Source: Parcubacteria group bacterium Gr01-1014_30 (GTDB lineage: Bacteria; Patescibacteriota; Minisyncoccia; Minisyncoccales; 2-12-FULL-40-12). Taken from it: a DNA stretch of 64,000 bases. This document shows positions 6,050 through 63,968 of this stretch, piece after piece (position 1 is the first letter of the stretch; every line of letters begins with the position of its first letter). Location: the NCBI GenBank assembly GCA_007376185.1, contig VMFS01000002.1, positions 2,198 to 66,197 of the forward strand, in the 5' to 3' direction. Made by a program: the position numbers and the translations under genes. The notes below the pieces were generated by a model. The model saw nothing but the letters and a program-made list of their open reading frames with translations. It did not search any database and was not told the DNA's origin.

Positions 6050-6616
6050 ATGAAGCGAAGGGTTTTTGTAGCCATTAACTTGCCAAAAGAGATAAAGGAG
6101 AAACTGGCTTCTTTTCAGTTGAAATGGCCAGAACTCCCTTGCCGCTGGACAAAAAAGGATAACTTGCACGTAACTTTGGCGTTTTTGGGATATTTAACTG
6201 ATGAAGAAACAGCTGAAGTTTGTCAAGAAGCAAAAGAAGTCGGTTTGAGGCACAGCCCTTTTTTTGTTAACTTGCGCAAAATAGTTTACGGGCCCCAAAA
6301 GGCGGCGGTTCGTCTTGTTTGGGCAGAGGGAGCTAAATCAGAAGAGCTGGCGAAATTGCGCGATGATTTGGAAGGCGAGTTGATTGGTCTATCTTCTGAG
6401 CTTGAGTCGGAACGTGGCAGAGGATACATTCCTCATATCACCCTGGGCAGGTTGCGGCGATGGGAGTTCAGAAAAATTGAGCCAGAAGAGAGGCCTGAGA
6501 TAAACGAAGACATCAGCTTGAGTTTTGAGGTCTCGTCAGTTGAAGTGATGGAAAGCAGGTTGAAAAGAGGGGGAGCTGAATATGCCGTTTTGGAAAGCTG
6601 TCAGCTTTCCAAATAA
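6050..6616 (+). CDS. thpR: RNA 2',3'-cyclic phosphodiesterase (2H phosphoesterase, LigT/ThpR)
   Basis: Two H-x-T/S-x motifs (HVTLAFLG and HITLGRL). The ATG at 6050 lies within TTG-initiated ORF 6044..6616. Confidence 0.8.
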   Translation: MKRRVFVAINLPKEIKEKLASFQLKWPELPCRWTKKDNLHVTLAFLGYLTDEETAEVCQEAKEVGLRHSPFFVNLRKIVYGPQKAAVRLVWAEGAKSEELAKLRDDLEGELIGLSSELESERGRGYIPHITLGRLRRWEFRKIEPEERPEINEDISLSFEVSSVEVMESRLKRGGAEYAVLESCQLSK

Positions 6617-6736
6617 AATCCGAAGCACGAAGCACGAAATCCGAAACAAATTCAAATAACCAAATGATAAAAATTCAAAACAACTGTTTAGAATTTTAGA
6701 AATTGGAATTTAGATATTGTTTCGAATTTCGAATTT
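6617..6736 (+). repeat. R-family AT-rich imperfect hairpin repeat, copy R1
   Basis: AAATCCGAAGCACGAAGCACGAAATCCGAAACAAATTC...TTGTTTCGAATTTCGAATTT fills the whole thpR-murC spacer. Related copies lie at 27841-28040 (inverted), 30515-30560, 58942-59134 and 59671-59804. Confidence 0.8.
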
Positions 6737-7987
6737 ATGAACATTCATTTCATCGGCATTGGAGGCATTGGCGTTTCTGCTTTGGCAAGGTACTACTTAC
6801 AAAAGGGCCATAAAATTACCGGCTCCGACTTGGTGTCCTCTGAAATTACCTCTTCTTTAGAGAAAAGCGGGGTAAAAATCAAAATAGGGATTCACAAAAA
6901 AAGAAACGTTCCCGGCAACACCGATTTGGTAATTTACAGCGAGGCGGTGCCTGAAGATAACGCCGAACTTAGAGAGGCAAAGAAGCTGAAAATCAAGCGG
7001 ATGAGCGGAGCAAAAGCACTAGGAGAATTGACTAAAAAATATTTTACAATTGCCGTTGCGGGAACGCACGGAAAGAGCACCACAACGGCCATGCTCGGCC
7101 TTGTTTTGGCGAAAGCCGGCTTTGACCCAACCGTGATTGTCGGCACAAAACTTAAAGAATTCAATGGCTCAAACTGCCGGGTAGGGAAGTCAAAGTATCT
7201 TGTTCTGGAGGCGGATGAGTACGGAGCCAAGTTCTTGAACTACCGGCCGAAAATGATTGTTTTAACCAACATTGACAAAGACCACCTGGATTACTATAAA
7301 ACCTTTGCGAACGTTAAAAGAGCTTTCAAGAAATTTATCGGAAATTTGCCAAAAGACGGAGTTTTCATCACCGAAAAGTCGGTAAAACAAAAAGATATAA
7401 AAAAGCTGAAAGGTTTGCTGAAAGTACCCGGAGAACATAATGCTTACAACGCGGCTTTGGCGTTGATAGCTGCCCGAGCACTGAAAATTCCCGACAAAGT
7501 TTCTCTTGGAGCATTGGCACAATACAAGGGTTCCTGGCGCCGCTTTGAAGAAAGGAATATCAAACTAGACGCTAAAAGCTATACGCTAATTAGTGACTAC
7601 GCTCACCATCCAACCGAGATTAAAGTTACCTTAAAAGCGGCTAGGGGAAAATATCCCAAAAAAAAGATTTGGTGTGTTTTTCAACCGCACCAGTACCAAA
7701 GGACTTATTATTTGTTTGACGATTTTGTCAAGGTTTTTCGTAAAGCGCCAATTGATAAATTGATGATTACCGATATTTACGATGTCGTAGGCAGAGAAGA
7801 AAATGAAATAAAGGCAAAAGTGAGTTCGGCAAAACTGGTTCAAAAGATAGGCCAAAGCCGCGCGCTTTATCTGCCGCAGGCCAAGATAATGGATTATCTA
7901 AAGAAGAACCTCCGCGGCGGCGAGGTTGTCATAGTTATGGGAGCAGGGGATATTTACAAAATCGCTGCGGCCTTGACAAAAGATTAG
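6737..7987 (+). CDS. murC: UDP-N-acetylmuramate--L-alanine ligase
   Basis: IHFIGIGGIGVSALA...GSD N-terminus and the P-loop AVAGTHGKSTTTAM. Confidence 0.9.
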   Translation: MNIHFIGIGGIGVSALARYYLQKGHKITGSDLVSSEITSSLEKSGVKIKIGIHKKRNVPGNTDLVIYSEAVPEDNAELREAKKLKIKRMSGAKALGELTKKYFTIAVAGTHGKSTTTAMLGLVLAKAGFDPTVIVGTKLKEFNGSNCRVGKSKYLVLEADEYGAKFLNYRPKMIVLTNIDKDHLDYYKTFANVKRAFKKFIGNLPKDGVFITEKSVKQKDIKKLKGLLKVPGEHNAYNAALALIAARALKIPDKVSLGALAQYKGSWRRFEERNIKLDAKSYTLISDYAHHPTEIKVTLKAARGKYPKKKIWCVFQPHQYQRTYYLFDDFVKVFRKAPIDKLMITDIYDVVGREENEIKAKVSSAKLVQKIGQSRALYLPQAKIMDYLKKNLRGGEVVIVMGAGDIYKIAAALTKD

Positions 7988-9860: not shown

Positions 9861-10136
9861 GCCGCGTACTTTTGTACAGCGGCTTTATTTGTTATATAAT
9901 AGCCCTTGACAAGTATTCACATAGAGTGCTATAATAGTATATTGCACTTTTACAAAATTATAATTTTTATCTCCTGCTGATTGAGTATGGCTCTTAGAAA
10001 TTCCCCCGACCCCTGGCTTAAGACACCTTCGGTTTCTAAAGTGTTGACTTTTTGCACTGCGGAGGCATATTCTGTCAGCAGGAGATGACTCTCTATGCTG
10101 TAAGGCCGGCATGGCGCCGGCCTGGAAGGAGGAACC
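9861..10136 (+). promoter_or_regulatory. island regulatory module, copy 1: terminator, consensus promoter, palindrome over the -10, structured leader, SD
   Basis: Terminator hairpin GCCGCGTAC-TTTT-GTACAGCGGC plus a T-rich run (9861-9892). TTGACA 9906-9911, 18 nt, TATAAT 9930-9935. AGTGC...GCACT palindrome spanning the -10. A 10-bp stem CTCCTGCTGA (9971-9980) / TCAGCAGGAG (10075-10084). Hairpin GGCCGGCATGGCGCCGGCC, then AAGGAGG and the ATG at 10137. Paralogous to 11359-11561. Confidence 0.6.
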
Positions 10137-11294
10137 ATGCGAAGGTCACGGATAGCGTTGTTCTTTACGCTTACGGCACTCGTTGCTGTGAGCAACCCTG
10201 CGCCAATCGCGGCGCAGACTCAGCCGTCTTACACGGTTCAGCAGGGCGACACGCTCTACGAGCTGGTGGGGATTTACAGCTCCGATCAGCCTGAGATGCG
10301 CGCTCTTGTCATCCTCAATCCGTTCCTTGCGGAGGAAGGAAGGATGTTTAGGGACAAGCAAGGACGTTTTATCGTCCGCATCAGACCCGACGAGATCATT
10401 GAAGGAATTGAACGGCTCAACCTCGCTGTGGAGCCGGTTCCGATCACCGAGCTCTCGCCCACGCCGACACCTTTGTCGGCTGCGGAGGAGCAAGGGGAGG
10501 CCCTCGTCGCCGAAACCGAAGCCGGCTTCAACTGGCTTTGGCTGCTTTACGCGCTTGGCGGACTCGTCGCGCTCTATTTGATTCTCCGGAATTTGCTCGA
10601 GTCGCGGCGGCCGAACCTGCCCTTACTCAGGCAGTTTAACCCCGCGCTTACGGCGAACCCGGTGACTGCCGCGCCGCCGATGCGGCGGGGCGGCATCCTT
10701 TACACCGACCACTTGAGTATCCGGCGCCAACTTGTGGAGCAGGCGGCGCGTCGCCATACGGAGGTCCACGGCTTTATGCCGAGCTTGGATGACATCCGGA
10801 TCGTGGGCGACATAACCCGCGGGCGTCTCTACGACGTTTGGGAAACGCGTGACGCGAACGGTCGCTGGACACCACGACGTTACAACGGCGAGCCGGGGTA
10901 CCAAGCCATGGTGTCTGTGAACGACGGTGAGCCAGGGCTCACCACGTTTTCACAGGGTTGTGCGAACGATCTGCGTTTGGGTGCTCGCTACCGCGGCGGG
11001 CGCTTCGTGCCAGACACGGAGGTTCAGCCCATTCCGGCCGAACCGCCCGAACCGGCACCCACGCGTTCAACGCCCTTCGCGGTGCCCATGACGGCGCGCG
11101 CGACGAGCGAGCAGGTACTCGCCGTTATCGGTGGCTTGAGGATTATGCTTCCGGCCGGCTCCATAATCCGCACCGGAGACGACGGTGAGATTACTCTCAC
11201 CGTGACCGGTCCCTGTGACATCAGGATTGGTCAATGGGCCAAGAAAACGGCGCGGCCAAAGGTGGTTCGCGCCGCGAGTGGCGAGACTCAGTAG
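10137..11294 (+). CDS. island ORF3: signal peptide, LysM domain, TM helix, ~230-aa unknown cytoplasmic domain
   Basis: Signal MRRSRIALFFTLTALVAVSNPAPIAAQ. LysM-like YTVQQGDTLYELVGIY. TM helix WLWLLYALGGLVALYLIL. SD AAGGAGG. About 60% GC. Confidence 0.7.
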   Translation: MRRSRIALFFTLTALVAVSNPAPIAAQTQPSYTVQQGDTLYELVGIYSSDQPEMRALVILNPFLAEEGRMFRDKQGRFIVRIRPDEIIEGIERLNLAVEPVPITELSPTPTPLSAAEEQGEALVAETEAGFNWLWLLYALGGLVALYLILRNLLESRRPNLPLLRQFNPALTANPVTAAPPMRRGGILYTDHLSIRRQLVEQAARRHTEVHGFMPSLDDIRIVGDITRGRLYDVWETRDANGRWTPRRYNGEPGYQAMVSVNDGEPGLTTFSQGCANDLRLGARYRGGRFVPDTEVQPIPAEPPEPAPTRSTPFAVPMTARATSEQVLAVIGGLRIMLPAGSIIRTGDDGEITLTVTGPCDIRIGQWAKKTARPKVVRAASGETQ

Positions 11295-11358: not shown

Positions 11359-11561
11359 ACCGCGTATTTCAGCGGTTTTTTGTTGGGCTAGCTATTGACA
11401 AATACTGGCATATAGTGCAGTAATAATATACTGCACTTTTACAATATTATAGTTCTTACCTCCTGCTGATTGAGTTTGGTTCTTGAAGAGGCAGATTCTG
11501 TCAGCAGGAGATGACTCTCTGCGAATAGGTCGGCATAGTGCCGGCCTACCAAGGAGGAACC
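11359..11561 (+). promoter_or_regulatory. island regulatory module, copy 2
   Basis: Terminator ACCGC-GTATTTCA-GCGGT plus TTTTTTG (11359-11382). TTGACA 11395-11400. Perfect palindrome AGTGCAGTA-N6-TACTGCACT over the -10 region. Stem CTCCTGCTGA (11460-11469) / TCAGCAGGAG (11501-11510). Hairpin GGTCGGCATAGTGCCGGCC, then AAGGAGG and the ATG at 11562. Confidence 0.6.
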
Positions 11562-14408: not shown

Positions 14409-15539
14409 ATGCCCGGGCAAGTTATAACGCTCTTCACTTTCAACTTAACAAAAGTTCTTTTGCTGTCGGCGTTGGCGGCCGCTATAGCTTTCGGATTGAC
14501 CCCTTTCTTAATCGCTCTCTTGAATAAAGCGGAGTTTTGGAAAAAAAACGCACGATCAAAAACCATTACCGGCCAGGAAGCGAAAGTTATTTACTCATTG
14601 CACAAAGACAGAGAGGTTTCCTTGCCCCGGGGCGGGGGAGTGGTAATTTGGTTGACGGTTTTGATTGTCGTTCTAATTTTCTGGGCACTTTCTTTTGCGG
14701 ACAAACCCTGGTGGCTGAAAATGTTTAATTTTTTGTCTAGAGGAGAAACCTGGTTGCCTCTCTTCACGCTTGCCGCTGCATCCCTTATTGGTCTTTTTGA
14801 CGATGCGCTTGTCGTTTTTGGCAATGGAGCCACTCAACTATTAAGCCGGCTTTGGAGAGGGAAAGAATATATAGCTGGCGGACTCCCCTTTACAGCGCGC
14901 CTTTTGGTGGTGTCAGCTATTGGGCTTGTGGGCGGCTGGTGGTTTTGGGCAAAGCTCGGCTGGACCTCAGTTCATATCCCGCTGATTTTTAACTTTCCTT
15001 ACGGTATTGATCTGACGCTCGGAATTTGGATGATACCTCTCTTTATATTCGTGATGGTAGCTTCTTGGTCAAGCGGAGTTGTTGACGGTTTGGATGGTTT
15101 AGCGGGTGGCATTTTTTCGTCAATTTTCGGGGCATTTGCCGTAATCGCTTTTTCGCAAGGAAAAATAGAATTAGCCGCCTTTTGTGCAGCTGTGTTCGGG
15201 GCGCTTTTCGCTTTTTTGTGGTTCAACATTCCTCCGGCGCGTTTTTATATGGGGGAAACAGGTATTCTTGGACTGACTTCCACTATGGCGGTTGTTGCCT
15301 TTCTTACAGATTCTGTTGCGGTTTTGCCTATAATTGCCGGACCTTTAGTCGTTGAAGTCGGCTCAATCATTTTGCAGTTAACTTCCAAGAAGTTTCGCGG
15401 CAAAAAAATATGGTTAGCTACCCCAATACACCACCACTTTGAAGCAAAAGGCCTGCCTTCTTACCAAATTGTGATGCGTTTTTGGATAGTAGGGATAGTG
15501 TTTGCCATAATTGGAACGGCCATACGCTTGTTAGGCTAA
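14409..15539 (+). CDS. mraY: phospho-N-acetylmuramoyl-pentapeptide transferase
   Basis: Polytopic membrane protein. FDDALVVFG, VDGLDGLAGG and PIHHHFE motifs. Confidence 0.9.
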   Translation: MPGQVITLFTFNLTKVLLLSALAAAIAFGLTPFLIALLNKAEFWKKNARSKTITGQEAKVIYSLHKDREVSLPRGGGVVIWLTVLIVVLIFWALSFADKPWWLKMFNFLSRGETWLPLFTLAAASLIGLFDDALVVFGNGATQLLSRLWRGKEYIAGGLPFTARLLVVSAIGLVGGWWFWAKLGWTSVHIPLIFNFPYGIDLTLGIWMIPLFIFVMVASWSSGVVDGLDGLAGGIFSSIFGAFAVIAFSQGKIELAAFCAAVFGALFAFLWFNIPPARFYMGETGILGLTSTMAVVAFLTDSVAVLPIIAGPLVVEVGSIILQLTSKKFRGKKIWLATPIHHHFEAKGLPSYQIVMRFWIVGIVFAIIGTAIRLLG

Positions 15540-15546
15540 ATTCAAA

Positions 15547-16833
15547 ATGCAAAGTGAAAATTCAAAGTTAAAAAATTTCCGCAAAAAGTATCAAAAGTTC
15601 ATTTACAACAATTATTCTTATAGAATTTTGCACAGTAATTTAGAAGTTTTTTTTGATTTTAAAGTTGAACCGGATATTAAGTTCAAGCCAAAAATAGTTA
15701 TAAAAAATGTCAGCAAATCTAGCTTAAAAAGAGTAGGGGAGAGCGCTTTTGAAAACTTAGTATTTCATTTAGGTTTGGTGGAAATCCCCAGCTACTGGAA
15801 AGCAACTTGCTCGCCAATTATTGAAATAAGGGCTGGTTACGTGAATAGGGAGCAGATAAGCTTTTGGAAAGATTTACTAATGAAGGGAATGGGCCAGTTC
15901 TTTTACGAAAACAAAATTGACTTCACTGCACCTGATTTTTTAACAATTAAGAGTGAAGTTCGCCAACTTAACTCTGAAAAACTCAATGAAACGCGGCCTT
16001 TCCGCGTTTCACTAAAAAACAAGGTTTTGGTGCCTGTGGGGGGAGGGAAGGATTCAGTAGTCACCTTAGAGCAGTTAAAGAAGAGGGGAGAAAAAATTGG
16101 TCTTTTTTTGGTAAATCCCAAAAGAGCGGCGCAAGACATAGCAAGGATGTCGGGAATAAAGGACCCTATTATTGTTAGGCGGAAAATTGACCCAGCCCTT
16201 TTAGAATTGAACAAAAAAGGGTTTTTGAATGGGCATACGCCTTTCACGGCGCTTTTGTCTTTTTATAGCTGCTTCGCGGCTGTTTTGTTTGGCTACAAAA
16301 ACATCGCCTTTGCCAACGAGAAATCAGCAGATGAGGGGAACTTGCGCTACCTTGGCACCAAGATTAACCACCAGTGGTCAAAGTCGTCTGAGTTTGAGAG
16401 AAAATTCAGGAAATACTTGAAAAATTACTTGGTCAAAAACATAAACTATTTCAGCTTTTTGCGAAAATACACGGAGCTCGAGATTGCCAAAATGTTTACA
16501 AAGTATCCGCAGTACTTTTCTGTTTTTTCCAGCTGCAATCGCGCCGAGAAGTGGTGTGGTTCTTGCCCCAAATGTTTATTTATATATGCGGTTTTGTACC
16601 CTTACTTGGGGAGTAAAACTCTCTTGAAGATTTTTGGGAAAAATGTCTTTAATAATAAAAAGTTATTCTCAACAATGAAAAGTTTAATAGGGCAGGGGAG
16701 TCATAAACCTTTTGAGTGCGTGGGAACTTTTGCAGAGAACAAGAAAGCATTTGAATTGTGTTTGGAAAAAGCCAAAAGAGAAGGAAGGTTTCCTTATTTA
16801 CTAGAGTGCTACAATGAAATTAGGCGAACTTAA
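15547..16833 (+). CDS. PP-loop (adenine nucleotide alpha-hydrolase-like) protein with Cys cluster; candidate MurL-type UDP-MurNAc-L-Ala-L-Glu epimerase
   Basis: VPVGGGKDSVVT (SGGxDS-like PP-loop). C-terminal CNRAEKWCGSCPKC. Lies between mraY and murD. 428 aa. Confidence 0.4.
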   Translation: MQSENSKLKNFRKKYQKFIYNNYSYRILHSNLEVFFDFKVEPDIKFKPKIVIKNVSKSSLKRVGESAFENLVFHLGLVEIPSYWKATCSPIIEIRAGYVNREQISFWKDLLMKGMGQFFYENKIDFTAPDFLTIKSEVRQLNSEKLNETRPFRVSLKNKVLVPVGGGKDSVVTLEQLKKRGEKIGLFLVNPKRAAQDIARMSGIKDPIIVRRKIDPALLELNKKGFLNGHTPFTALLSFYSCFAAVLFGYKNIAFANEKSADEGNLRYLGTKINHQWSKSSEFERKFRKYLKNYLVKNINYFSFLRKYTELEIAKMFTKYPQYFSVFSSCNRAEKWCGSCPKCLFIYAVLYPYLGSKTLLKIFGKNVFNNKKLFSTMKSLIGQGSHKPFECVGTFAENKKAFELCLEKAKREGRFPYLLECYNEIRRT

Positions 16834-25276: not shown

Positions 25277-25395
25277 GAGCGAAGAGAACTTCGTTCTCTT
25301 CTTTACCTTCACTTCCTACGGAAGTTTGGTGAGCGAAGAGAACTTCGTTCTCTTCTTTACCTTCACTTCCTACGGAAGTTTGGTGAGCGAAGCGA
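25277..25395 (+). repeat. 54-bp tandem repeat (about 2.2 copies) of the S-family double-hairpin element
   Basis: The unit GAGCGAAGAGAACTTCGTTCTCTTCTTTACCTTCACTTCCTACGGAAGTTTGGT starts at 25277 and 25331, with a partial third copy at 25385. Flanked by further hairpins GGGAGAACT..AGTTCTCCC and TTAGAAACC-GCG-GGTTTCTAA. Confidence 0.85.
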
Positions 25396-27840: not shown

Positions 27841-28040
27841 TTTAATTAAATTCGAAATTCTAATATCGAAATTCGAAACACTATCTAAATTCTAATTTTC
27901 TAAATTCAAAACGTTTTGGAAGGTCGCTGAGGGCTTCGCCCTCCTCTCACGCCTCGTTCAGCTTTGCTAAACTTCGGCTTTAGAATTTTGGTCATTGGGA
28001 TTTGTTTTGGATTTCGTGCTTCGTGCTTCGGATTTTTTAA
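27841..28040 (-). repeat. R-family AT-rich hairpin repeat, copy R2, carrying an S-family double hairpin (27921-27979) in its centre
   Basis: AAATTCGAAATTC...TTGGATTTCGTGCTTCGTGCTTCGGATTT is the inverted orientation of R1. The central insert is AGGTCGCTGAGGGCTTCGCCCTCCTCTCACGCCTCGTTCAGCTTTGCTAAACTTCGGC. Confidence 0.8.
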
Positions 28041-29354: not shown

Positions 29355-30443
29355 TTAAATGGTTTTCTCAATATCTTCCACCTCTTTGCTTATGTGTCTT
29401 TCAATTTCTGCCAGGTCTCTGAGTAAGTGTTCCTCTTTTTCCTTTTCTTCGCGAGAGAGCGATTTTTGAAGCTTGACTCTTTTGATAAGGGCAAGCTCAA
29501 CTTCAATGTCGCGTCTCAATTCCTCAAAGCCGCGTCTTACCGCCTCTTCAGCTTCGTGAATTTCTCTTATTAATTCCTTTCTCAGATGTTTTGCTCTTTT
29601 GCTCCAAACAAGAGTAAATGCAGCCAACCCAATCAGCGCCATCAGCAGAATAGTTGCCAAGCCGGCAAAAAGTGTTTCGTAACTTATTCTTGAAGAACCA
29701 AATTGCAAAGCTGTCGGATTAACTCTGAGAGTAATTTGGGGGCTGGGCGGCGAAACTGCGTCTCCCAGTTGCGATTGAGTCCACACGATATATTCTCCGG
29801 ATGAAAGGAAAGAAGGATGCCGGTAGAACCATTCTCCGTTTTTGTCGGAAGTTTCTGAATAACTGAAGGTTTCCCCGCTGCTCAAGTTTTGCACGTATAT
29901 AATAATTTCCATGTCAGGGGCTTCTGTCCTGCCGCCTAAGTAGAAAATTTCTTCGTTTGAAATCTGGCGCGGGAAAGTGCTGATGAAGGGCGGCCCAAGC
30001 TGGGAAATTTGCGCCAGAGCCGCAGGCACAAAAGCGAATAGCAAATTAAGAAACAAGGCAAGTAGTATAACCAGATGGCCGTATTTATTTTTATACTTTT
30101 CCAGTTCTCTGAGTTTTTCGCGAATTCCTAAGGGAAATTCTTTTATCAGACGCCTGTTCTCAATTTGGAGATGACGCAGGTAGATTTTGCGAGCAACAAA
30201 TGCGAAAGCGACAACCAGAAGAGCCAGTAAAATAAGAACATAAACATTGGTTGCGTAAAAAATAAATGGCGACAGACTTCTTATCCTTTCTTGGACCTCG
30301 CGGAAGTTCCCTGCTTTATCGTAAGCCCTGACAACAATATCATAAGTTCCCCTGGCAAGGCTAAGCACTTTCGGGCTTTGCGTTTCCACAAATAACAGCG
30401 ACGCGTCAAGGTCCTCTGTGATTGGGCGAAAATGCCCTTGCAA
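29355..30443 (-). CDS. hypothetical polytopic membrane protein, probably the 3' part of a larger surface-protein gene
   Basis: TTG-initiated ORF. It begins mid-domain (TYDIVVRAYDKAGN is typical of Ig-like surface repeats). 3 TM helices and a charged coiled-coil tail. Its 5' end abuts an unrelated gene fragment. Confidence 0.5.
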   Translation of the reverse strand: MQGHFRPITEDLDASLLFVETQSPKVLSLARGTYDIVVRAYDKAGNFREVQERIRSLSPFIFYATNVYVLILLALLVVAFAFVARKIYLRHLQIENRRLIKEFPLGIREKLRELEKYKNKYGHLVILLALFLNLLFAFVPAALAQISQLGPPFISTFPRQISNEEIFYLGGRTEAPDMEIIIYVQNLSSGETFSYSETSDKNGEWFYRHPSFLSSGEYIVWTQSQLGDAVSPPSPQITLRVNPTALQFGSSRISYETLFAGLATILLMALIGLAAFTLVWSKRAKHLRKELIREIHEAEEAVRRGFEELRRDIEVELALIKRVKLQKSLSREEKEKEEHLLRDLAEIERHISKEVEDIEKTI

Positions 30444-30514
30444 AATTCAATAACATTCTCACCAAATTTAGCGGTTCTTTCTTCTAAATCATAATTGTTT
30501 CTAATTTCAGTCAT
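30431..30514 (-). pseudogene. 5' fragment (28 codons) of a four-helix-bundle / 23S rRNA intervening-sequence protein family gene
   Basis: MTEIRNNYDLEERTAKFGENVIEFCKGI matches the N-terminal YDLEERT..F....I.F pattern I recall for that family. The rest of ORF 30281..30514 is out-of-frame readthrough of the neighbouring gene. Confidence 0.5.
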
Positions 30515-30560
30515 TCAAAATTGATTCAAAATTAAAAATTCGAAATTCTAAATTTTAACA
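30515..30560. repeat. R-family repeat, partial copy R3
   Basis: CAAAATTGATTCAAAATTAAAAATTCGAAATTCTAAATTTTA lies immediately 5' of the four-helix-bundle fragment. Confidence 0.55.
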
Positions 30561-46104: not shown

Positions 46105-46838
46105 AACACGCTTTCCAAAATTGTTCTTACAAACAGTTCAGGAGCTTCTTCTCTTGGAATGTGGCCGATACCCTCAAGAACTTTGAGTTCTGCGCCCGGA
46201 ATTTTTGCTTTCACAAAATGAGCGAACTTGAAAGGGGTAACGTTGTCCTTATCGCCCCAAATTAACACCGTGGGTACAGAAACACTGGAGAGCTGATTTG
46301 AAAAGTCCTGCTTGACAACTTTCAGATAAGTTTCTCTCATTGGCCCCTTTGTACCAGGATAGTCGCTTTTGACAAAGAATCTATAAAAAGCTCGTCTGAT
46401 CTCAGAATGAAACGGCAAAAAAGGAAATTTGTTAAACGCTTTGGCCATTTTCGCCATAAATTCTTTTTTCCAGTCGTTTACTCTAATTATGGCAGGAGCT
46501 ACAAGCAATAGCTTCTTGACGTCTCCGGGAAACATCAATGAGTACTTTAGCGCAATTGAGCCGCCAAAAGAATGTCCCATCAAAAAAAATTGAGGTCGCT
46601 GAGGCTTTGCCTCCTCTCCCGCCTCACCCTTCGGCGAAAGATTATTCTCTTTGCAGTACTTTTTTACCCAGTTGGCGTAATCCTCAACCGCCCAAGTTTC
46701 TTCCAAAGGTGGGCTTTGACCAAAACCAGGCAAATCCGGTAAAAAAACTTTGAGACCTTCTATTTCCAGCATTTCTTTAATCTTGCCCCAGTTTTTGGCA
46801 GAGGACCCCCAGCCGTGAAGAATCAAAATGTCCTTCAT
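46101..46838 (-). CDS. alpha/beta hydrolase
   Basis: ILHGWGSS and the GHSFGG nucleophile elbow. C-terminal GHIP. Confidence 0.75.
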   Translation of the reverse strand: MKDILILHGWGSSAKNWGKIKEMLEIEGLKVFLPDLPGFGQSPPLEETWAVEDYANWVKKYCKENNLSPKGEAGEEAKPQRPQFFLMGHSFGGSIALKYSLMFPGDVKKLLLVAPAIIRVNDWKKEFMAKMAKAFNKFPFLPFHSEIRRAFYRFFVKSDYPGTKGPMRETYLKVVKQDFSNQLSSVSVPTVLIWGDKDNVTPFKFAHFVKAKIPGAELKVLEGIGHIPREEAPELFVRTILESVL

Positions 46839-55553: not shown

Positions 55554-55779
55554 GAAAATTGCGCGGATTTATTAGTACCGCTTCTCTCAACTGATTACTC
55601 AGCTTACAAGTGCGGCCTATCAACCTCATCATCTCTGAGGAATCCATAGAATCTTCATCTTGGGGTGGGCTTCGAGCTTAGATGCTTTCAGCTCTTATCC
55701 CTTCCTAACATAGCTACCCAGCAATGCTCCTGGCGGAACAGCTGGCACACCAGAGGTTAGTTCACTCCGGTCCTCTCGT

Positions 55780-56217
55780 CAAGTTAATCTTATATTTCTA
55801 TAAGCTTAGACTATATCTTCACCGAATACATAGCATTATGTGTTCGGGTCAACGTATTATGGTAGCTTTATAAACCTACCATCTATTCCAGAATTGGAAT
55901 AAGTCGTTACGGGGACAAACTATAGCTGCAAAATTTCTCTTAAATCTGGCGGAGTATCACTTCTTCTTTTCAGCTGAATCATAATACTCCCATCGCCATC
56001 TAGAAAACCAGCGATATACGCGAAATCAGTAGATTTTGCCTTGGTTTGTCTTCCCACGGTATCGCCTTAATAATTATCCGGTCCTCAAGTAAATTATACC
56101 ACACATTATTTGGACCGCAAATATACTGTGGTCATTGCAACCGGATAACTAATGAAGGTTTCACCGTTATTAGTTGAGTTGTCATCATGGATTGCTCCAT
56201 GAAGTAGCAATTTCCTT
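55780..56217 (-). mobile_element. group I intron in the sarcin-ricin loop (after the U of AGU|ACGAGAGGACC)
   Basis: The exons join to GCTCTTAGT|ACGAGAGGACCGG. Exon 1 ends in U and the intron ends in G. The intron carries GGTGAAGATATAGTCTAA (J8/7-P7-like) and CCCCGTAACGACT. Confidence 0.75.
55920..56057 (-). pseudogene. 45-codon remnant of a LAGLIDADG homing endonuclease inside the intron
   Basis: The minus-strand translation is VGRQTKAKSTDFAYIAGFLDGDGSIMIQLKRRSDTPPDLREILQL*. It has one LAGLIDADG motif and is far shorter than functional enzymes. Confidence 0.7.
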
Positions 56218-56257
56218 ACTAAGAGCAACTCCCCTCAAGATTCTAAACGCCTGCGGT

Positions 56258-56288
<31 letters not shown>

Positions 56289-56348
56289 GAACCCAGCTCA
56301 CGTACCACTTTAATTGGCGAACAGCCAAACCCTTGGGAGCTTCTCCAC

Positions 56349-56381
<33 letters not shown>

Positions 56382-56425
56382 GAACAGGGCCGTTGATGTG
56401 GACTCGCGGGCCCTACTAGCCTGTT

Positions 56426-56856
56426 CAATCCTTTTTTTGGATTAGACTATATCTTCACCGAGCGCGTAAATACCTTATGCGCTCGGGACGGCGTATTATG
56501 ACGGGTAATGTTCACCGCCATATCGGTCAAAAGACCTCAGTCGTTACGGGGTCAAATCTAAAATTACTTTGGCCCAATTAATCTATCTAAGTAAAACTCA
56601 TTCACTTGATATTTAATAGAATGAATTTCATTCCTAATTATTATTAATTGCCAAAGGCAAAGAAATAAAATTAAGAGAATAATTATTTTAAACCAATTTT
56701 GTTTTATGTAATTCACAATTTTAGATCGACTTCCCACGGTGTTGGAAGAACTCAAAACCTTTTAATAAAGGAAGACCAGTTCTTATTTCACCGTTATAAG
56801 CCGTACATTTCACGCATTACTGCGTGATTGGACAACAAACTCTTTTTTCAGAGTTT
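56426..56856 (-). mobile_element. group I intron at the L2449 site of the peptidyl-transferase centre
   Basis: The exons join to CCCCGGGGAT|AACAGGCTAGTAG (E. coli GGGGAU|AACAGGCUGAUA). U before and G at the end of the intron. It shares the 3' core with the other intron (CCCCGTAACGACT...ATAATACG...TCGGTGAAGATATAGTCTAA). The interior is AT-rich. Confidence 0.75.
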
Positions 56857-57418
56857 ATCCCCGGGGTAACTTTTGGCTGATGATCTTTGCCGGTCCTACC
56901 AACCAGCATCGGTTCACTAAGTTCCGCTTTCGCGACAGCTCGACATATCCGTCTCGCTGTAAAGCCGGCTTGTGCCTTTGCGCGACCAGTCCGATTTCCA
57001 TCCGGACATAGCCGACCTTATAAACGCCTCCGTTACTCTTTTGGAGGCAAGCGCCCCACTTAAACTGACCGCCACCCACTGTTTTCCTTGCGGAATTAGT
57101 CCTACCATTTTAAAAGACGGGTGTTTCATTGGCGGCTCCATTGGGTCCGAAAACCCAACTTCAAAGCCTACCCGCTACGCTACGCATCCAAAGTAATAAG
57201 ACAATGGAAAGCTACAGTAAAGCTCCCGGGGTCTTTCCGTCTAGCCGCAGGTAACCGGCATCTTTACCGGTATTGCATTTTCACCGGGCGCCTCGTTGAG
57301 ACAGTTCCCCAGTCGTTAAGCCTTTCATGCGGGACAGAACTTACCTGTCAAGGGATTACGCTACTTTAACACGGTCAGAGTTACCGCGGACGTTCACTCG
57401 TGGCTTAACTCGCTCAGC

Positions 57419-57515
57419 CCCCGCTCTCTAAGCTCTATATATTCTGTAATTACTCAGACAAACAACATAGTGTTTGCCCAAATTTCTACATTCACATACA
57501 GCATAGAGAGCGGGG
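57419..57515 (+). repeat. TIR-bounded 97-nt insertion A in 23S (helix 68 tip region)
   Basis: CCCCGCTCTCTAAGCTC...CAGCATAGAGAGCGGGG, with 12-bp terminal inverted repeats and an AT-rich interior. Confidence 0.8.
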
Positions 57516-57630
57516 ACCGGCAAGGATAACACACAAGCACTGGTCAGGCCTCAGCCCCTATACATCCTCTTACGAGTTTAGCAGGGACCTGTGTTTTAGG
57601 TAAACAGTCGCCAGGGACACTTTCGCTGCG

Positions 57631-57731
57631 CCCCGCCCTCTATGCCCGTCGTCATTTTTTTCTCACAATACTTTTTCAGTTGTAGAATTTCAAAACGAAT
57701 TAATCTATGACTACGAGCTTAGAGGGCGGGG
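57631..57731 (-). repeat. TIR-bounded 101-nt insertion B in 23S (helix 63 variable region), flipped relative to A and C
   Basis: CCCCGCCCTCTATGCCC...GAGCTTAGAGGGCGGGG. The CTATGC and CTAAGC ends are swapped compared with A and C. Confidence 0.8.
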
Positions 57732-58206
57732 AAGGCATATTGCGAACTTACGCCTGCTTTTTTGCCGAGTTCCTTAACGAGGTTTCACCCGTTCACCTTG
57801 GTCTGCTCGACCTGCCCACCTGTGTCGGTTTGCGGTACGGATTCCGCGTTTTTAACTTAGCAAGGTTTTTCTTGGAAGAATTTTCTATTAAGTTGTCTCA
57901 GACGTAACCGAAACTCCCCTTTCAGAAGAGAATCCAATAACTCTCTCAATATCCAATTCTCCGTCGCCTTGCCAAAAAAGCGCAGAAGGGCCGGAATATT
58001 AACCGGCTGTCCATCCCCTAAACCCTTTCGGGGTCGGGTTAGGCCCGCCTAACCCTTGGCTGATTGACATTGCCAAGGAAACCTCGGGCTTTCGGTGTCC
58101 AGGGATCTCACCTGGATTGTGGTTACTCATGCCAACATTCTCACTTCGCAGCGCTCCACCCCGACTCGCGTCGTGGGCTTCACTGCACTGCAAACGCTCC
58201 CCTACC

Positions 58207-58305
58207 CCCCGCCCTCTAAGCCGTATGTTCAAGGTAGCCAGAATTTATCAACTGTTAATAGTTTGATATTTCGATTACCTAAAATACACAGCATAGAGGG
58301 CGGGG
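58207..58305 (+). repeat. TIR-bounded 99-nt insertion C in 23S helix 45 (classic IVS site)
   Basis: CCCCGCCCTCTAAGCCG...CAGCATAGAGGGCGGGG replaces the helix following GCTCCCCTACC. Confidence 0.8.
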
Positions 58306-58941
58306 TCTTGTCTTCGGTACTGAGTTTTAGTCCCGTAAATCTTTGGCGCAGAACTCCTTAGTTAGTAAGCTGTTACGCACTTTTTAAAGGATAGCTGCTT
58401 CTAAGCTAACCTCCTAACTATCAGAGGTGCTCCACTTCCTTGAGTACACTTAACTCAAATTTTGGGACCTTAGACAAAGATCGTGGGCTTTTTCCCTTTT
58501 GAGCTTGGACCTTAGCGCCCAAGTTCTGACTCCCCGCAAAACGTTTGGTATTCGGAGTTTGGTAAGAGTACCTACCGTAAGGCACGATATTCTTTCCAGT
58601 GCTCTACCCCCAAACGTTATTTGTCGCGGGGGCTAGCCCTAAAGCTATTTCGGGGAGAACCAGCTATTACCAAGCTCGATTAGCTTTTCACTTCTTGCCA
58701 CAAGTCATCCGAGAGTATTGCACGGCTCACCGGTTCGGGCCTCCTCAAAGATTTCTCTTTGACTCACCCTGCTCATGGCAAGCTCGCTTGGCTTCGGGTC
58801 TTACGCGTACCACTTTTTTTCGCGCTGTTAACACTTGGTTTCCCTTTGTCTGCTCCCTAAAGGGGATTAGACAGCGGCACGCATAAAGTCGTTGGCTCAT
58901 TCTTCAATAGGCACCCCGTCGCACCTCGCTAACGCTCGGTG

Positions 58942-59134
58942 CCCCCAAATCCGAAATTCGACCACAGCCCATTTCCAATGGGCTGGGTCGCCCAGCCCTT
59001 TAGTAAGGGCTGTGGCGAAATTCGAAATCCTAAACAATATCAAAATTCAAAATCCAAATGACCAAAATTTTGTTTCTGTTTTGAATTTTGGGTTTTGGAT
59101 TTGTTTCGTATTTAGGATTTCGTGCTTCGGATTT
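58942..59134. repeat. R-family repeat copy R4 plus a GC-rich cloverleaf-like module, inserted in 23S helix 25 (classic IVS site)
   Basis: AAATCCGAAATTCG, then CCACAGCCC...GGGCTGTGG, then CGAAATTCGAAATCCTAAACAATATCAAAATTC...TTGGATTTGTTTCGTATTTAGGATTTCGTGCTTCGGATTT. Flanked by the helix-25 stem ACGCTCAGTG/CACCGAGCGT (RNA sense). Confidence 0.75.
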
Positions 59135-59670
59135 ACGAGGAACACTGAGCGTCAGCGAAATGTTCCGAGTCCTTGTGGGCATGATGGTTTCAGGTTCTAT
59201 TTCACCGGGGTCAACCCCCTACTTTTCACCTTTCCCTCACGGTACTGGTTCACTATCGGTGAGATTGAGTATTTAGCCTTTCCGCGTAGTCGCGGATGCT
59301 TCCCGCAGGGTTGTCTTTTCCCGCGGTACTAAAGAAAAATATCAAGGAGCATAAAGTCGTTTTCATCTACGGGACTATTACCCTCTATGGTTGCCCTTTC
59401 CAGGGTCATTTAATTAACGAAACTTTACCTAAGTGCTCTCCCTCAGAAGTTTTTGTCTTAAGAACAAAAGCTCCTGACAATATTTCCTTACAACCCCAAG
59501 CATAAAAATACTTGGTTTTGGCTTCTCCCTGTTCGCTCGCCGCTACTGAGGGAATAATCCTTCGACATGCTCAGGATTACCCTGAACTTGTTGAAGGGTA
59601 ACTGTGTTTTCTTTTCCTCCGCTTACTGAGATGTTTCACTTCAGCGGGTACGCCACCGCGCTCTGCAGCG

Positions 59671-59804
59671 GAAGCACGAAATCCTAAATACGAAGCACGA
59701 AACAAATCCTAAATTCAAAATTATAATGTCCAAAACGTGTTTTGAATTTTGGTCATTTGGATTTTGATACTGTTTCGAATTTCGATATTCGAGTTTCGAA
59801 TTTC
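59671..59804. repeat. R-family repeat copy R5 inserted in the 5' domain of 23S (helix 9/10 variable region)
   Basis: GAAGCACGAAATCCTAAATACGAAGCACGAAACAAATCC...TTGGTCATTTGGATTTTGATACTGTTTCGAATTTCGATATTCGAGTTTCGAATTTC. Confidence 0.75.
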
Positions 59805-59971
59805 CGGTGCAAAGCACGGCTTGCCGCGTTTTGCACGGCAGGGTTTCCCCATTCGGACATCCCCGGTTCTAAGGTTGGTAGCCACCTCCCCGAGGCTTAT
59901 CGCAGGCACCCCACGTCCTTCATCGCCTCAATCTCCCAAGGCATCCTCCATCTGCCCTTAAAAATGCAATT

Positions 59972-63155: not shown

Positions 63156-63194
63156 ATTGTTATATTATCGCTTACTGCCTAAATACATGTCAAG

Positions 63195-63262
63195 CCCCGT
63201 ATATCATCTTCTGACGCCTGCGGCGATTTCGCGCGAAGCGCGCCGAAAGTTGTATTACGGGG
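63195..63262. repeat. Y-family structured repeat, copy Y2
   Basis: CCCCGTATATCATCTTCTGACGCCTGCGGCGATTTCGCGCGAAGCGCGCCGAAAGTTGTATTACGGGG. Confidence 0.75.
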
Positions 63263-63780: not shown

Positions 63781-63901
63781 ACCTTTCTTAATTTTTATTT
63801 CTCAATTAATTCTTCGACCTTATTTTTCGCCTGTTCCAAGAATTGTTTTGCCCCAGTAGCAGAACAAGTTCGCTACGGGGTAAACTTTTGAGCGGGCTTC
63901 G

Positions 63902-63968
63902 CCCCGTATATCATCTTCTGACGCCTGCGGCGTTTTGCGCGAAGCGCGCCGAAAGTTGTATTACGGGG
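63902..63968. repeat. Y-family structured repeat, copy Y3 (a 30-nt mini copy lies at 63851-63880)
   Basis: CCCCGTATATCATCTTCTGACGCCTGCGGCGTTTTGCGCGAAGCGCGCCGAAAGTTGTATTACGGGG is nearly identical to Y2. The mini copy is CCCCAGTAGCAGAACAAGTTCGCTACGGGG. Confidence 0.75.

Follow-up and report, generated by a model that had tools for sequence, protein, structure and literature searches.

The stretch analysed here, referred to as the window, comprises 64,000 nucleotides (nt) of contig VMFS01000002.1 (positions 2,198 to 66,197) from Parcubacteria group bacterium Gr01-1014_30, a genome of the candidate phyla radiation (CPR). The MreC encoded in the window matches a protein of this organism at 100% identity. 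The window holds a 23S ribosomal RNA (rRNA) gene followed by a 5S gene, and no 16S gene is found in it. The 23S gene is 4417 nt long compared to 2925 positions in the Rfam large subunit (LSU) model and contains nine insertions (Table 1), two of which are copies of a short hairpin-forming repeat, the R element. Five copies of this repeat (R1 to R5) had been placed in the window by the original prediction, in spacers between protein genes, in 23S rRNA helices and beside a fragment of a four-helix-bundle gene. All five are borne out at these places, R1, R2, R4 and R5 as full copies and R3 as a truncated one.

In a blastn search of the window, R1 finds R2, R4 and R5 at E-values of 1e-12 to 2e-16. 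A hairpin profile was built from 75 hairpins, all taken from the genomes of unrelated organisms, and run over the whole window with nhmmer. It matches exactly four sites and nothing else: R2 at 28039-27845 (minus strand, E 9.9e-30), R5 at 59666-59813 (plus strand, E 2.3e-29, with a weaker 1.4e-24 on the minus strand), R1 at 6604-6736 (plus strand, E 2.7e-29) and R4 at 59144-58944 (minus strand, E 5.5e-28). R3 is not significant by the hairpin profile alone, and its blastn E-value is about 0.08. The elements are 120-200 nt in length, with five copies in the 64 kb of the window, and the window copies share 68-79% identity with one another and 71-76% with the best foreign copy. In all five copies Tandem Repeats Finder shows arms made of imperfect repeats with a period of 7, the array of R3 spanning 30524-30554. 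Conservation also extends to the non-repetitive parts, namely the region around an ATG, which is retained in R1, R2 and R5, and GATAYTGTTTCG.

The arms had been predicted to pair into a long hairpin. This holds for R1, R2, R4 and R5, each of which folds into a single long hairpin, and does not hold for R3 (z about 0). Measured against dinucleotide shuffles, the z-scores are -4.2/-5.1 for R1 and -3.0/-3.5 for R2; on the rRNA strand, R5 reaches -71.7 kcal/mol (z -8.1) and R4 together with its rRNA flanks reaches -117.8 kcal/mol (z -13.0). At the Rfam gathering score there is no match for the R copies in the window, and R1 is without a family match even at E up to 5, yielding just chance-level microRNA and CRISPR (clustered regularly interspaced short palindromic repeat) hits. 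Intrinsic terminators and repetitive extragenic palindromes (REPs) were ruled out as identities for R. A terminator consists of a short GC-rich stem (under about 20 base pairs, bp) followed by a run of U, and a REP is a GC-rich palindrome of 35-40 nt, whereas the R stems are AT-rich, at least 50 bp long and end in ...CGRATTT with at most three T.

Two of the copies carry nested sequence. The sequence predicted at the centre of R2 was confirmed as a GC-richer segment of about 59 nt in the loop (27921-27979), with one short partial match of 35 nt and 89% identity at 46593-46625. In R4, a GC-rich double hairpin sits in the right arm (Table 1), with no further copy in the window or in loci L002-L201 of the genome and metagenome scans. 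The cassette at L153 also has a GC-rich double hairpin, distinct from that of R4, within the same right-arm heptad, likewise TCG(A)-flanked inside TTCGAA, and the two nestings look as if a second tiny element targets the TTCGAA site. At 15537-15570 the window also has the junction TAAATTCAAA-ATG-CAA-AGT-GAA-AAT-TCA-AAG, the start of an open reading frame (ORF) at 15547-16833, which resembles the loop-proximal left arm of R and is below significance with every profile.

The original prediction had described R from its copies in the window. The family is real, is not confined to this genome and is conserved at the nucleotide level across many phyla. When the 17-base left-arm pattern GAAGCACGAAATCCNAAA was run over one-genome-per-species contigs, at least 120 loci were found, and 110 of the 120 pattern loci hold profile-validated elements (nhmmer; 140 elements, 84 of them near full length). 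By record title, the lineages are Planctomycetota, Desulfobacterota, many Patescibacteria, Omnitrophota, Aminicenantes, Chloroflexi, Verrucomicrobiota, Lentisphaerota, Binatia, Nitrospiraceae and Hydrogenedentes. The external elements fold as the window copies do, into single hairpins with z below -3 in 74 of 84 and a median of 96% of pairs spanning the centre. Most matches to the left-arm pattern (83/131) are short ORF-less hairpins and just 2 carry a gene. R is a nucleotide-conserved family that occupies non-homologous sites in many bacterial phyla. Among predicted viral contigs, 7 of 12 pattern hits are true R hairpins (L206, L207, L208, L212, L213, L214 and L216; E 1e-16 to 1e-33), lying either in phage DNA or in host flanks. 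Phage genomes gave two weak protein hits and nothing more.

The two gene-carrying matches show what the arms enclose. In L046 (Pirellulales) and L079 (Patescibacteria) they surround ORFs of 121 and 122 amino acids (aa), the products of which exceed the gathering score of PF05635 (23S_rRNA_IVP; E 7e-10 and 7e-13, respectively) and are 57% identical to each other. The closest solved structure to the cargo protein is 2RLD (E 5e-13). Metagenome contigs scanned with an alignment of these two proteins contain at least 353 relatives, and the best 80 loci were examined. In these, the left arm abuts the ATG in 71 of 79 testable genes and the right arm follows the stop codon in 63 of 75, with both present in 62; one of the search peptides overlaps the left arm where it is coding, and the ~45 nt upstream and all of the right arm did not enter the search. 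The association of R arms with four-helix-bundle genes, proposed at the outset as a check, is found in these best loci, and the suggestion that R elements were once linked with such genes is supported, the arms flanking intact PF05635 genes here as in L046 and L079.

The full-length form is a PF05635 four-helix-bundle gene of 121-122 aa in the loop of a hairpin. Its left arm has the anatomy (AAATYCG/AAGCACG)n-AAACAAATTCAA-ATG-ACC-GAA-ATT-CAA-AAT, and its end reads ...GAAACAAATTCAA-ATG-ACC-GAA-ATT-CAA-AAT-TCA-AAA-C. Since the left arm holds the ATG and the codons that follow it, the stem includes the start codon and about seven codons of the gene. The right arm opens directly after the stop codon and is roughly the reverse complement of the left (GTTTTGAACATTTG...). 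Within the stem, the non-complementary heptads GAAGCAC and GATATTC recur opposite each other, in 16 cassettes versus 5 with complementary combinations. R1, R2, R4 and R5 match the independent-genome profile over both arms and have no PF05635 gene between them. Judged from their sequences, such ORF-less copies appear to have lost the ORF cleanly, from codon ~7 up to the stop.

R3 was predicted to lie directly 5′ of a fragment of a four-helix-bundle gene, and translation, similarity to L079 and a cassette profile all agree with this. The ORF next to R3 begins MTEIRNNYDLEERTAKFGENVIEFC and shares 48% identity with the N-terminus of the L079 protein (pairwise E 5e-7), a similarity that fades after about codon 28. 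The cassette profile, made from the 5′ part of the 62 full-length cassettes (arm plus 120 nt of ORF), matches R3 and the fragment together at 30559-30459 on the minus strand (E 7.7e-10, model positions 31-137). Because of this match of arm and ORF start, and the similarity to L079, we regard R3 as the remnant of a gene-carrying cassette in this genome. The 28-codon fragment gives no Pfam or NCBIfam hit, being too short. No paralogue of it is found in the window by tblastn, nor does tblastn with the intact L046 and L079 proteins find anything there. With R1, R2, R4 and R5 lacking the ORF and R3 retaining 28 codons of it, the window copies are therefore ORF-less or truncated derivatives, like 83 of the 131 foreign copies.

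We consider it probable that R1, R2, R4 and R5 are ORF-less members, and R3 a truncated member, of a widespread family of heptamer-armed cassettes that are carried as passengers and act like intervening sequences (IVSs) in the 23S rRNA. The hairpins would be selfish or near-neutral and would survive only where a long extra stem is tolerated, at the tips of surface rRNA helices and in intergenic spacers. In the 23S precursor, R4 and R5 would behave as IVSs, with a stem that prolongs the host helix and is most likely excised by RNase III without religation. For spacer copies in operon transcripts, the stem may serve as a double-strand-specific processing site between cistrons. The original interpretation of R as ORF-less IVS-like elements in rRNA helix tips and spacers is essentially right on this account, but too narrow: such elements occur in helices 25 and 10 and in spacers of the window, and elsewhere in a 16S helix (L032) and in 23S helix 98 (L229).

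Both rRNA placements in the window were confirmed against the LSU model. R4, in helix 25, follows model position 583 and replaces E. coli 542-551. R5, in the 5′ domain, forms the tip of a hairpin at model 152-177 that corresponds to E. coli helix 10, directly after helix 9; here 147 nt replace an 8-nt loop (model 161-168) in the E. coli 131-176 region, and BLAST against E. coli is concordant. Published IVS sites are helices 9, 25 and 45, and IVS stems are RNase III substrates (PMC4990558). R4 (helix 25) and R5 (helix 10, beside helix 9) thus lie, as IVSs do, at the tip of a surface helix at a recognised site. In both, complementary termini extend the host helix into a long stem, the two halves of the host helix pairing at its base. 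As judged by the position of the GAAGCAC arm and by the better-scoring profile strand, R4 is sense (the GAAGCAC arm being 5′ in the rRNA) and R5 is antisense, and therefore either orientation is tolerated in rRNA. Placement in rRNA is rare, seen in 1 of 200 foreign loci. In L032 an R element in antisense orientation forms a 138-nt insert in a 16S hairpin tip (model 178-197), and in L229 a 187-nt R-like insert occupies the tip of 23S helix 98. A survey of CPR rRNA genes reports IVS-site insertions that are short and carry no ORF, and also 16S and 23S insertions that contain 23S_rRNA_IVP ORFs (PMC11270868).

An alternative for these two copies is that they are retained expansion segments, which stay in the mature 23S rRNA as extra surface stems. 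They do lie at helix tips, prolong the host helix and leave the conserved flanks undisturbed; R4 and R5 have opposite orientations, so no specific RNA sequence is needed; and with nine insertions in this 23S, not all need removal. We nevertheless find retention doubtful, since stems of at least 50 bp with perfect or near-perfect pairing are typical substrates of RNase III, excision is documented for IVSs at the same sites (PMC4990558) and the CPR survey reads short insertions at these sites as RNase III-cleaved IVSs (PMC11270868).

The closest known systems are the IVSs with an S23p/PF05635 ORF of Leptospira and Coxiella burnetii (helix 45). They resemble R in having complementary termini that form a hairpin at the tip of a surface helix, in being richer in AT than the rRNA, in the four-helix-bundle ORF in the loop of the full form and in their sporadic distribution (PMC4990558). 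Unlike them, R4 and R5 are ORF-less and lie in helices 25 and 10, the R family is mostly found outside rRNA, and the R arms are heptamer repeats conserved across phyla; the likeness drawn here is one of anatomy. R4 also has counterparts in Salmonella, Yersinia, Proteus and other bacteria, whose IVSs in helices 25 and 45 lack an ORF; those in helix 25 are short stems of 90-200 nt and presumed substrates of RNase III. The uncharacterised insertions at the IVS sites of CPR 23S rRNA genes (PMC11270868) are likewise ORF-less short stems. For neither group is there an assignment to a sequence family that also occurs in spacers or on the flanks of PF05635 genes, as there is here for the R elements. 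The CPR survey itself defines no family and draws no link to spacers (PMC11270868). IVSs have been known since 1990, and their origin, their function and the role of S23p/PF05635 are called unclear (PMC4990558). We found no description linking the arms, the PF05635 gene and the solo spacer hairpins in the limited library that was searched, and a prior description elsewhere is possible.

Most R elements are found between protein genes. R1 takes up the whole spacer between the stop codon of a LigT-like 2H phosphoesterase gene (6614-6616) and the murC start codon (ATG at 6737) and is oriented like these two genes. R2 extends from the stop codon of an S41 peptidase gene (28043) to within 20 nt of the ATG of rplI, encoding L9 (27835), also in gene orientation. 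In other CPR genomes R elements lie between groES and groEL, upstream of atpB and after ychF. A mini-hairpin, CTTTTACGAAGTAAAAG (CTTTTAC-GAA-GTAAAAG), is conserved after the R element, 2-4 nt before the downstream ATG (atpB, groEL and others; Table 1), and is not present in the window. Among 58 foreign elements with callable neighbours, those between co-directional genes comprise 19 sense and 21 antisense copies, with a further 8 between convergent and 10 between divergent genes.

Comparison with relatives shows that the family is polymorphic between lineages. L229 is a Parcubacteria relative whose MreC is 54% identical and in which the gene orders S41-L9-pyrG and 23S-5S are kept. A comparison of orthologous spacers had been called for by the original prediction, and in L229 the S41-L9 spacer, the site of R2, also holds an R-like hairpin. 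The L9-pyrG spacer holds one in L229 and is empty in the window, where it measures 37 nt; helix 98 is filled in L229 and uninterrupted in the window. All three R-variant copies of L229 (Table 1) have the CG of the heptad changed, to CC in the left arm and to GG in the right arm, in every heptad. Given these concerted G-C to C-G flips, pairing is therefore maintained and copies in one genome share lineage-specific changes. L203, L227 and L228 have no R copy in the 11-21 kb of each, and the partial 23S rRNA gene of L227 is without four of the other insertions of the window. The contigs of relatives stop inside or short of the 23S 5′ domain.

These spacer data bear on a second alternative, in which the spacer copies are domesticated operon punctuation, kept by the host as cis elements (RNase III sites, mRNA stabilisers or translation-control stems), with the rRNA copies as by-products. 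The spacers of R1 and R2 are taken up completely, leaving no room for a separate ribosome-binding site, copies precede groEL and atpB with the conserved mini-hairpin just before the ATG, and the S41-L9 spacer is occupied in two genomes as far apart as the window and L229. The sequence conservation across phyla and the recurrence of the GAAGCAC/GATATTC pair would also be expected of host-kept elements. We still judge this explanation unlikely. Both orientations are equally common between co-directional genes, the stability of the stems shows no strand asymmetry, positions vary between genomes and include convergent and divergent gene pairs, and L203, L227 and L228 are without a copy.

The label of miniature inverted-repeat transposable element (MITE), also offered by the original prediction, did not hold up, as target-site duplications are lacking and no relative with a transposase was recognised in the loci inspected for one. 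That R elements are non-autonomous transposon derivatives, mobilised in trans by a transposase from elsewhere, is very improbable in our view. They are short, AT-rich, non-coding and multi-copy, have inverted arms and lie in spacers, all as in MITEs; they are often found at contig ends, like repeats that break assemblies, and seven predicted viral contigs contain them. On the other side, flanking 2-5-mers match no more often than shuffled pairs. Where full-length relatives share these termini (two from the genome scan and those of the metagenome set), the only product encoded is the four-helix bundle of 121-122 aa. No transposase or recombinase was recognised in the cargo downstream of about 30 arms or in 80 full-length cassettes, a statement that covers reading of the cargo, the loci and their 8-kb flanks not having been scanned against protein families. 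The conserved inverted region is also the whole element and not a short terminal repeat. A similar comparison applies to the Correia, Nezha, ERIC (enterobacterial repetitive intergenic consensus) and RPE (Rickettsia palindromic element) palindromic elements. Like R, they are small, multi-copy, hairpin-forming and intergenic, and RPEs also insert into RNA and protein genes. Unlike them, R is without target duplication and without a recognised transposase-bearing parent, and it spans phyla instead of being restricted to a genus. Finally, we give practically no credence to a chance similarity of AT-rich low-complexity sequence with slippage-made heptamer runs, despite the period-7 arms and the commonness of heptamer repeats in bacterial spacers (PMC4692102; PMC4679880), given the alignment with an independent profile at E about 1e-29, the conserved non-repetitive parts and the arms that flank one specific gene family in 71 of 79 cases.

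Several observations weigh against the explanation that we prefer, of R elements as passengers that act like IVSs in the 23S rRNA. No RNase III gene was found by signature in the 64-kb window, which is silent on the rest of the genome. The four-helix-bundle protein is not known to have a catalytic activity. ORF-less spacer copies show no orientation bias and no transcribed-strand asymmetry in folding energy, and for these reasons there is no evidence for selection on the RNA over the DNA palindrome. Identical flanking k-mers, as a sign of target-site duplication, number 9 at k=2 (5.6±2.2 when shuffled), 0 at k=3 (1.6) and 1 at k=4 (0.5). The complementarity of spacer flanks equals that of the shuffled control, with no preference for pre-existing host hairpins, and the lack of a recognised transposase or recombinase, in the cargo as described above, counts here as well. 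Nucleotide conservation across phyla also exceeds what is expected of decaying selfish DNA, which hints at constraint. Together with the recurrent GAAGCAC/GATATTC pair, this conservation suggests a constraint at the sequence level, possibly recognition by the four-helix-bundle protein.

A broader association of PF05635 genes with heptamer arrays, beyond R, is a lead. Nine plasmid PF05635 genes, all with less than 50% identity to the R-type protein, form a small sample without a matched control; six of the nine, from Cyanobacteriota and Chloroflexota, lie between inverted arrays of heptamers whose sequence is specific to the lineage (Table 1), and the other three (Treponema, Bernardetia and Pseudanabaena) have direct short repeats on their flanks. 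Plasmid four-helix-bundle genes also lie within defence operons (L221, L223, L224, L225 and L226), each between short inverted heptamer arrays, in the placements helicase-four-helix bundle-methylase, with DUF1156 and HEPN, and cas2-four-helix bundle-cas1. The presence of 23S_rRNA_IVP genes inside cas loci has been noted before (PMC3936711). The Avd protein of diversity-generating retroelements is filed under PF05635 (PMC10053308). In contrast to Avd, no reverse transcriptase or template repeat stands beside the cassettes read in detail.

Heptanucleotide repeats of spacers, namely the cyanobacterial STRR (short tandemly repeated repetitive) sequences, GGGGAYT of Nostoc, GGGAATC of Xanthomonas and TAACTGA of Beggiatoaceae, are period-7 arrays like those of R, and are often found just upstream of start codons (PMC4692102; PMC4679880). 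Unlike these, the R arms are imperfect heptads in inverted arrays around a conserved core. The same papers are silent on PF05635 genes. We tentatively raise the possibility that PF05635 genes with inverted heptamer arms make up, across many bacterial phyla, an unrecognised class of cassette, of which classical IVSs would be the rare rRNA-resident members. The inverted arrays beside six of the nine plasmid genes and the shared flips in the heptads of L229 lend this support. ORF-less descendants of such cassettes might then explain many of the short CPR rRNA insertions and part of the excess of heptanucleotide repeats in spacers, and the protein might recognise the heptamer-built stem in RNA or DNA form and have a part in processing or spreading it.

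Table 1. Features of the window and of compared loci (window positions unless a locus, genus or E. coli numbering is given)
Feature	Position	Strand	Description
R1	6617-6736	+	ORF-less hairpin; nhmmer, blastn, fold, Pfam of flanking genes, period-7 arms
R2	27841-28040	-	ORF-less hairpin; nhmmer, fold, Pfam of neighbours
R3	30515-30559	-	Degenerate left (5′ untranslated region) arm of a truncated full-length cassette
PF05635 gene fragment	30431-30514	-	First ~28 codons (MTEIRNNYDLEERTAKFGENVIEFCKGI); rest of gene and right arm lost
R4	58942-59134	-	Hairpin in tip of 23S helix 25; nhmmer, LSU alignment, fold
Nested GC-rich double hairpin	58962-59015		54 nt, right arm of R4; TCG(A) duplication inside TTCGAA heptad on flanks
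R5	59671-59804	+	Hairpin in tip of 23S helix 10 (5′ domain), antisense to rRNA
Host 23S rRNA gene	55555-59971	-	Rfam RF02541, 2102.9 bits; insertion map against E. coli rrlH
23S insertion	E. coli 131-176		Holds R5
23S insertion	E. coli 226-233		+43 nt
23S insertion	E. coli 268-305		+80 nt
23S insertion	E. coli 542-551		Holds R4
23S insertion	E. coli 1157-1185		+77 nt
23S insertion	E. coli 1695-1770		+57 nt
23S insertion	E. coli 1843-1889		+85 nt
23S insertion	E. coli 2451		+430 nt
23S insertion	E. coli ~2657		+438 nt
R-variant copies of L229	L229 3031-3190, 18030-18143, 18618-18744		One in 23S helix 98
Mini-hairpin, CPR loci	L058 4412-4428; L105 1229-1245; L051 2371-2387; also L144, L156
Nostoc PF05635 flank			AATTCAA/TTGAATT, inverted heptamers
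Planktothrix PF05635 flank			AATCCCC+AATCGTA/CGATTTA, inverted heptamers
Dolichospermum PF05635 flank			TAATTCG/TTACGAA, inverted heptamers
Gloeocapsa PF05635 flank			TTTTAGA/TCTAAAA, inverted heptamers
Chlorohelix PF05635 flank			ATGAAGG/AATTCAT, inverted heptamers
Anabaena PF05635 flank			Heptamer array; upstream ...TTTTTACCTTTAC, downstream AAAGTAA-type units

The remaining insertions of the 23S rRNA gene have no copies elsewhere in the window or in scan loci L002-L201. Two of them, at 58207-58305 (helix 45, a classical IVS site) and 57631-57731 (the E. coli 1695-1770 region), have common GC-rich arms, CCCCGCCCTCTA...TAGAGGGCGGGG, with AT-rich loops, and make up a second hairpin insertion family that is not related to R. 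The ~438-nt insertion near E. coli 2657 gives a sub-threshold match to group I introns at 55788-56037 on the minus strand (RF00028, 30.7 bits, E 1e-5), and an ORF within it (55920-56057, minus strand) is a 45-aa remnant with a LAGLIDADG motif (FAYIAGFLDGDGS); because of these two features we read it as a decayed homing-endonuclease intron. The 430-nt insertion at E. coli 2451, in the peptidyl-transferase region (56425-56855), has no Rfam match, its sole ORF is 63 aa long and hydrophobic, and it is missing from the relative L227.

Other repeats were seen in the window. A 54-nt unit is perfectly duplicated in tandem at 25277-25384. A repeat of ~70 nt with GCCCCGTA...TACGGGG ends is present at 63194-63262 and 63901-63968, 707 nt apart and with 97% identity. 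Repeats of 82-97% identity at 9900-10094 and 11389-11520 contain TTGACA...TATAAT-like motifs as well as an inverted CAGCAGGAGAT arm and lie on either side of a gene in an island of 60% GC (10137-11294) in a genome of about 44% GC.

Returning to R, the finding would make IVSs the rRNA-resident minority of a much larger family of hairpin cassettes that lies mainly between protein genes, also within essential operons, groES-groEL among them. The short insertions without an ORF by which CPR rRNA genes are enlarged would become assignable to a defined sequence family with a searchable profile, and the hairpin profile would improve the annotation of rRNA genes and spacers in metagenome-assembled genomes. 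For the PF05635 protein, a family found in thousands of genomes that includes the Avd relatives of diversity-generating retroelements, a heptamer stem that sequesters the gene's own start codon would be a concrete candidate ligand.

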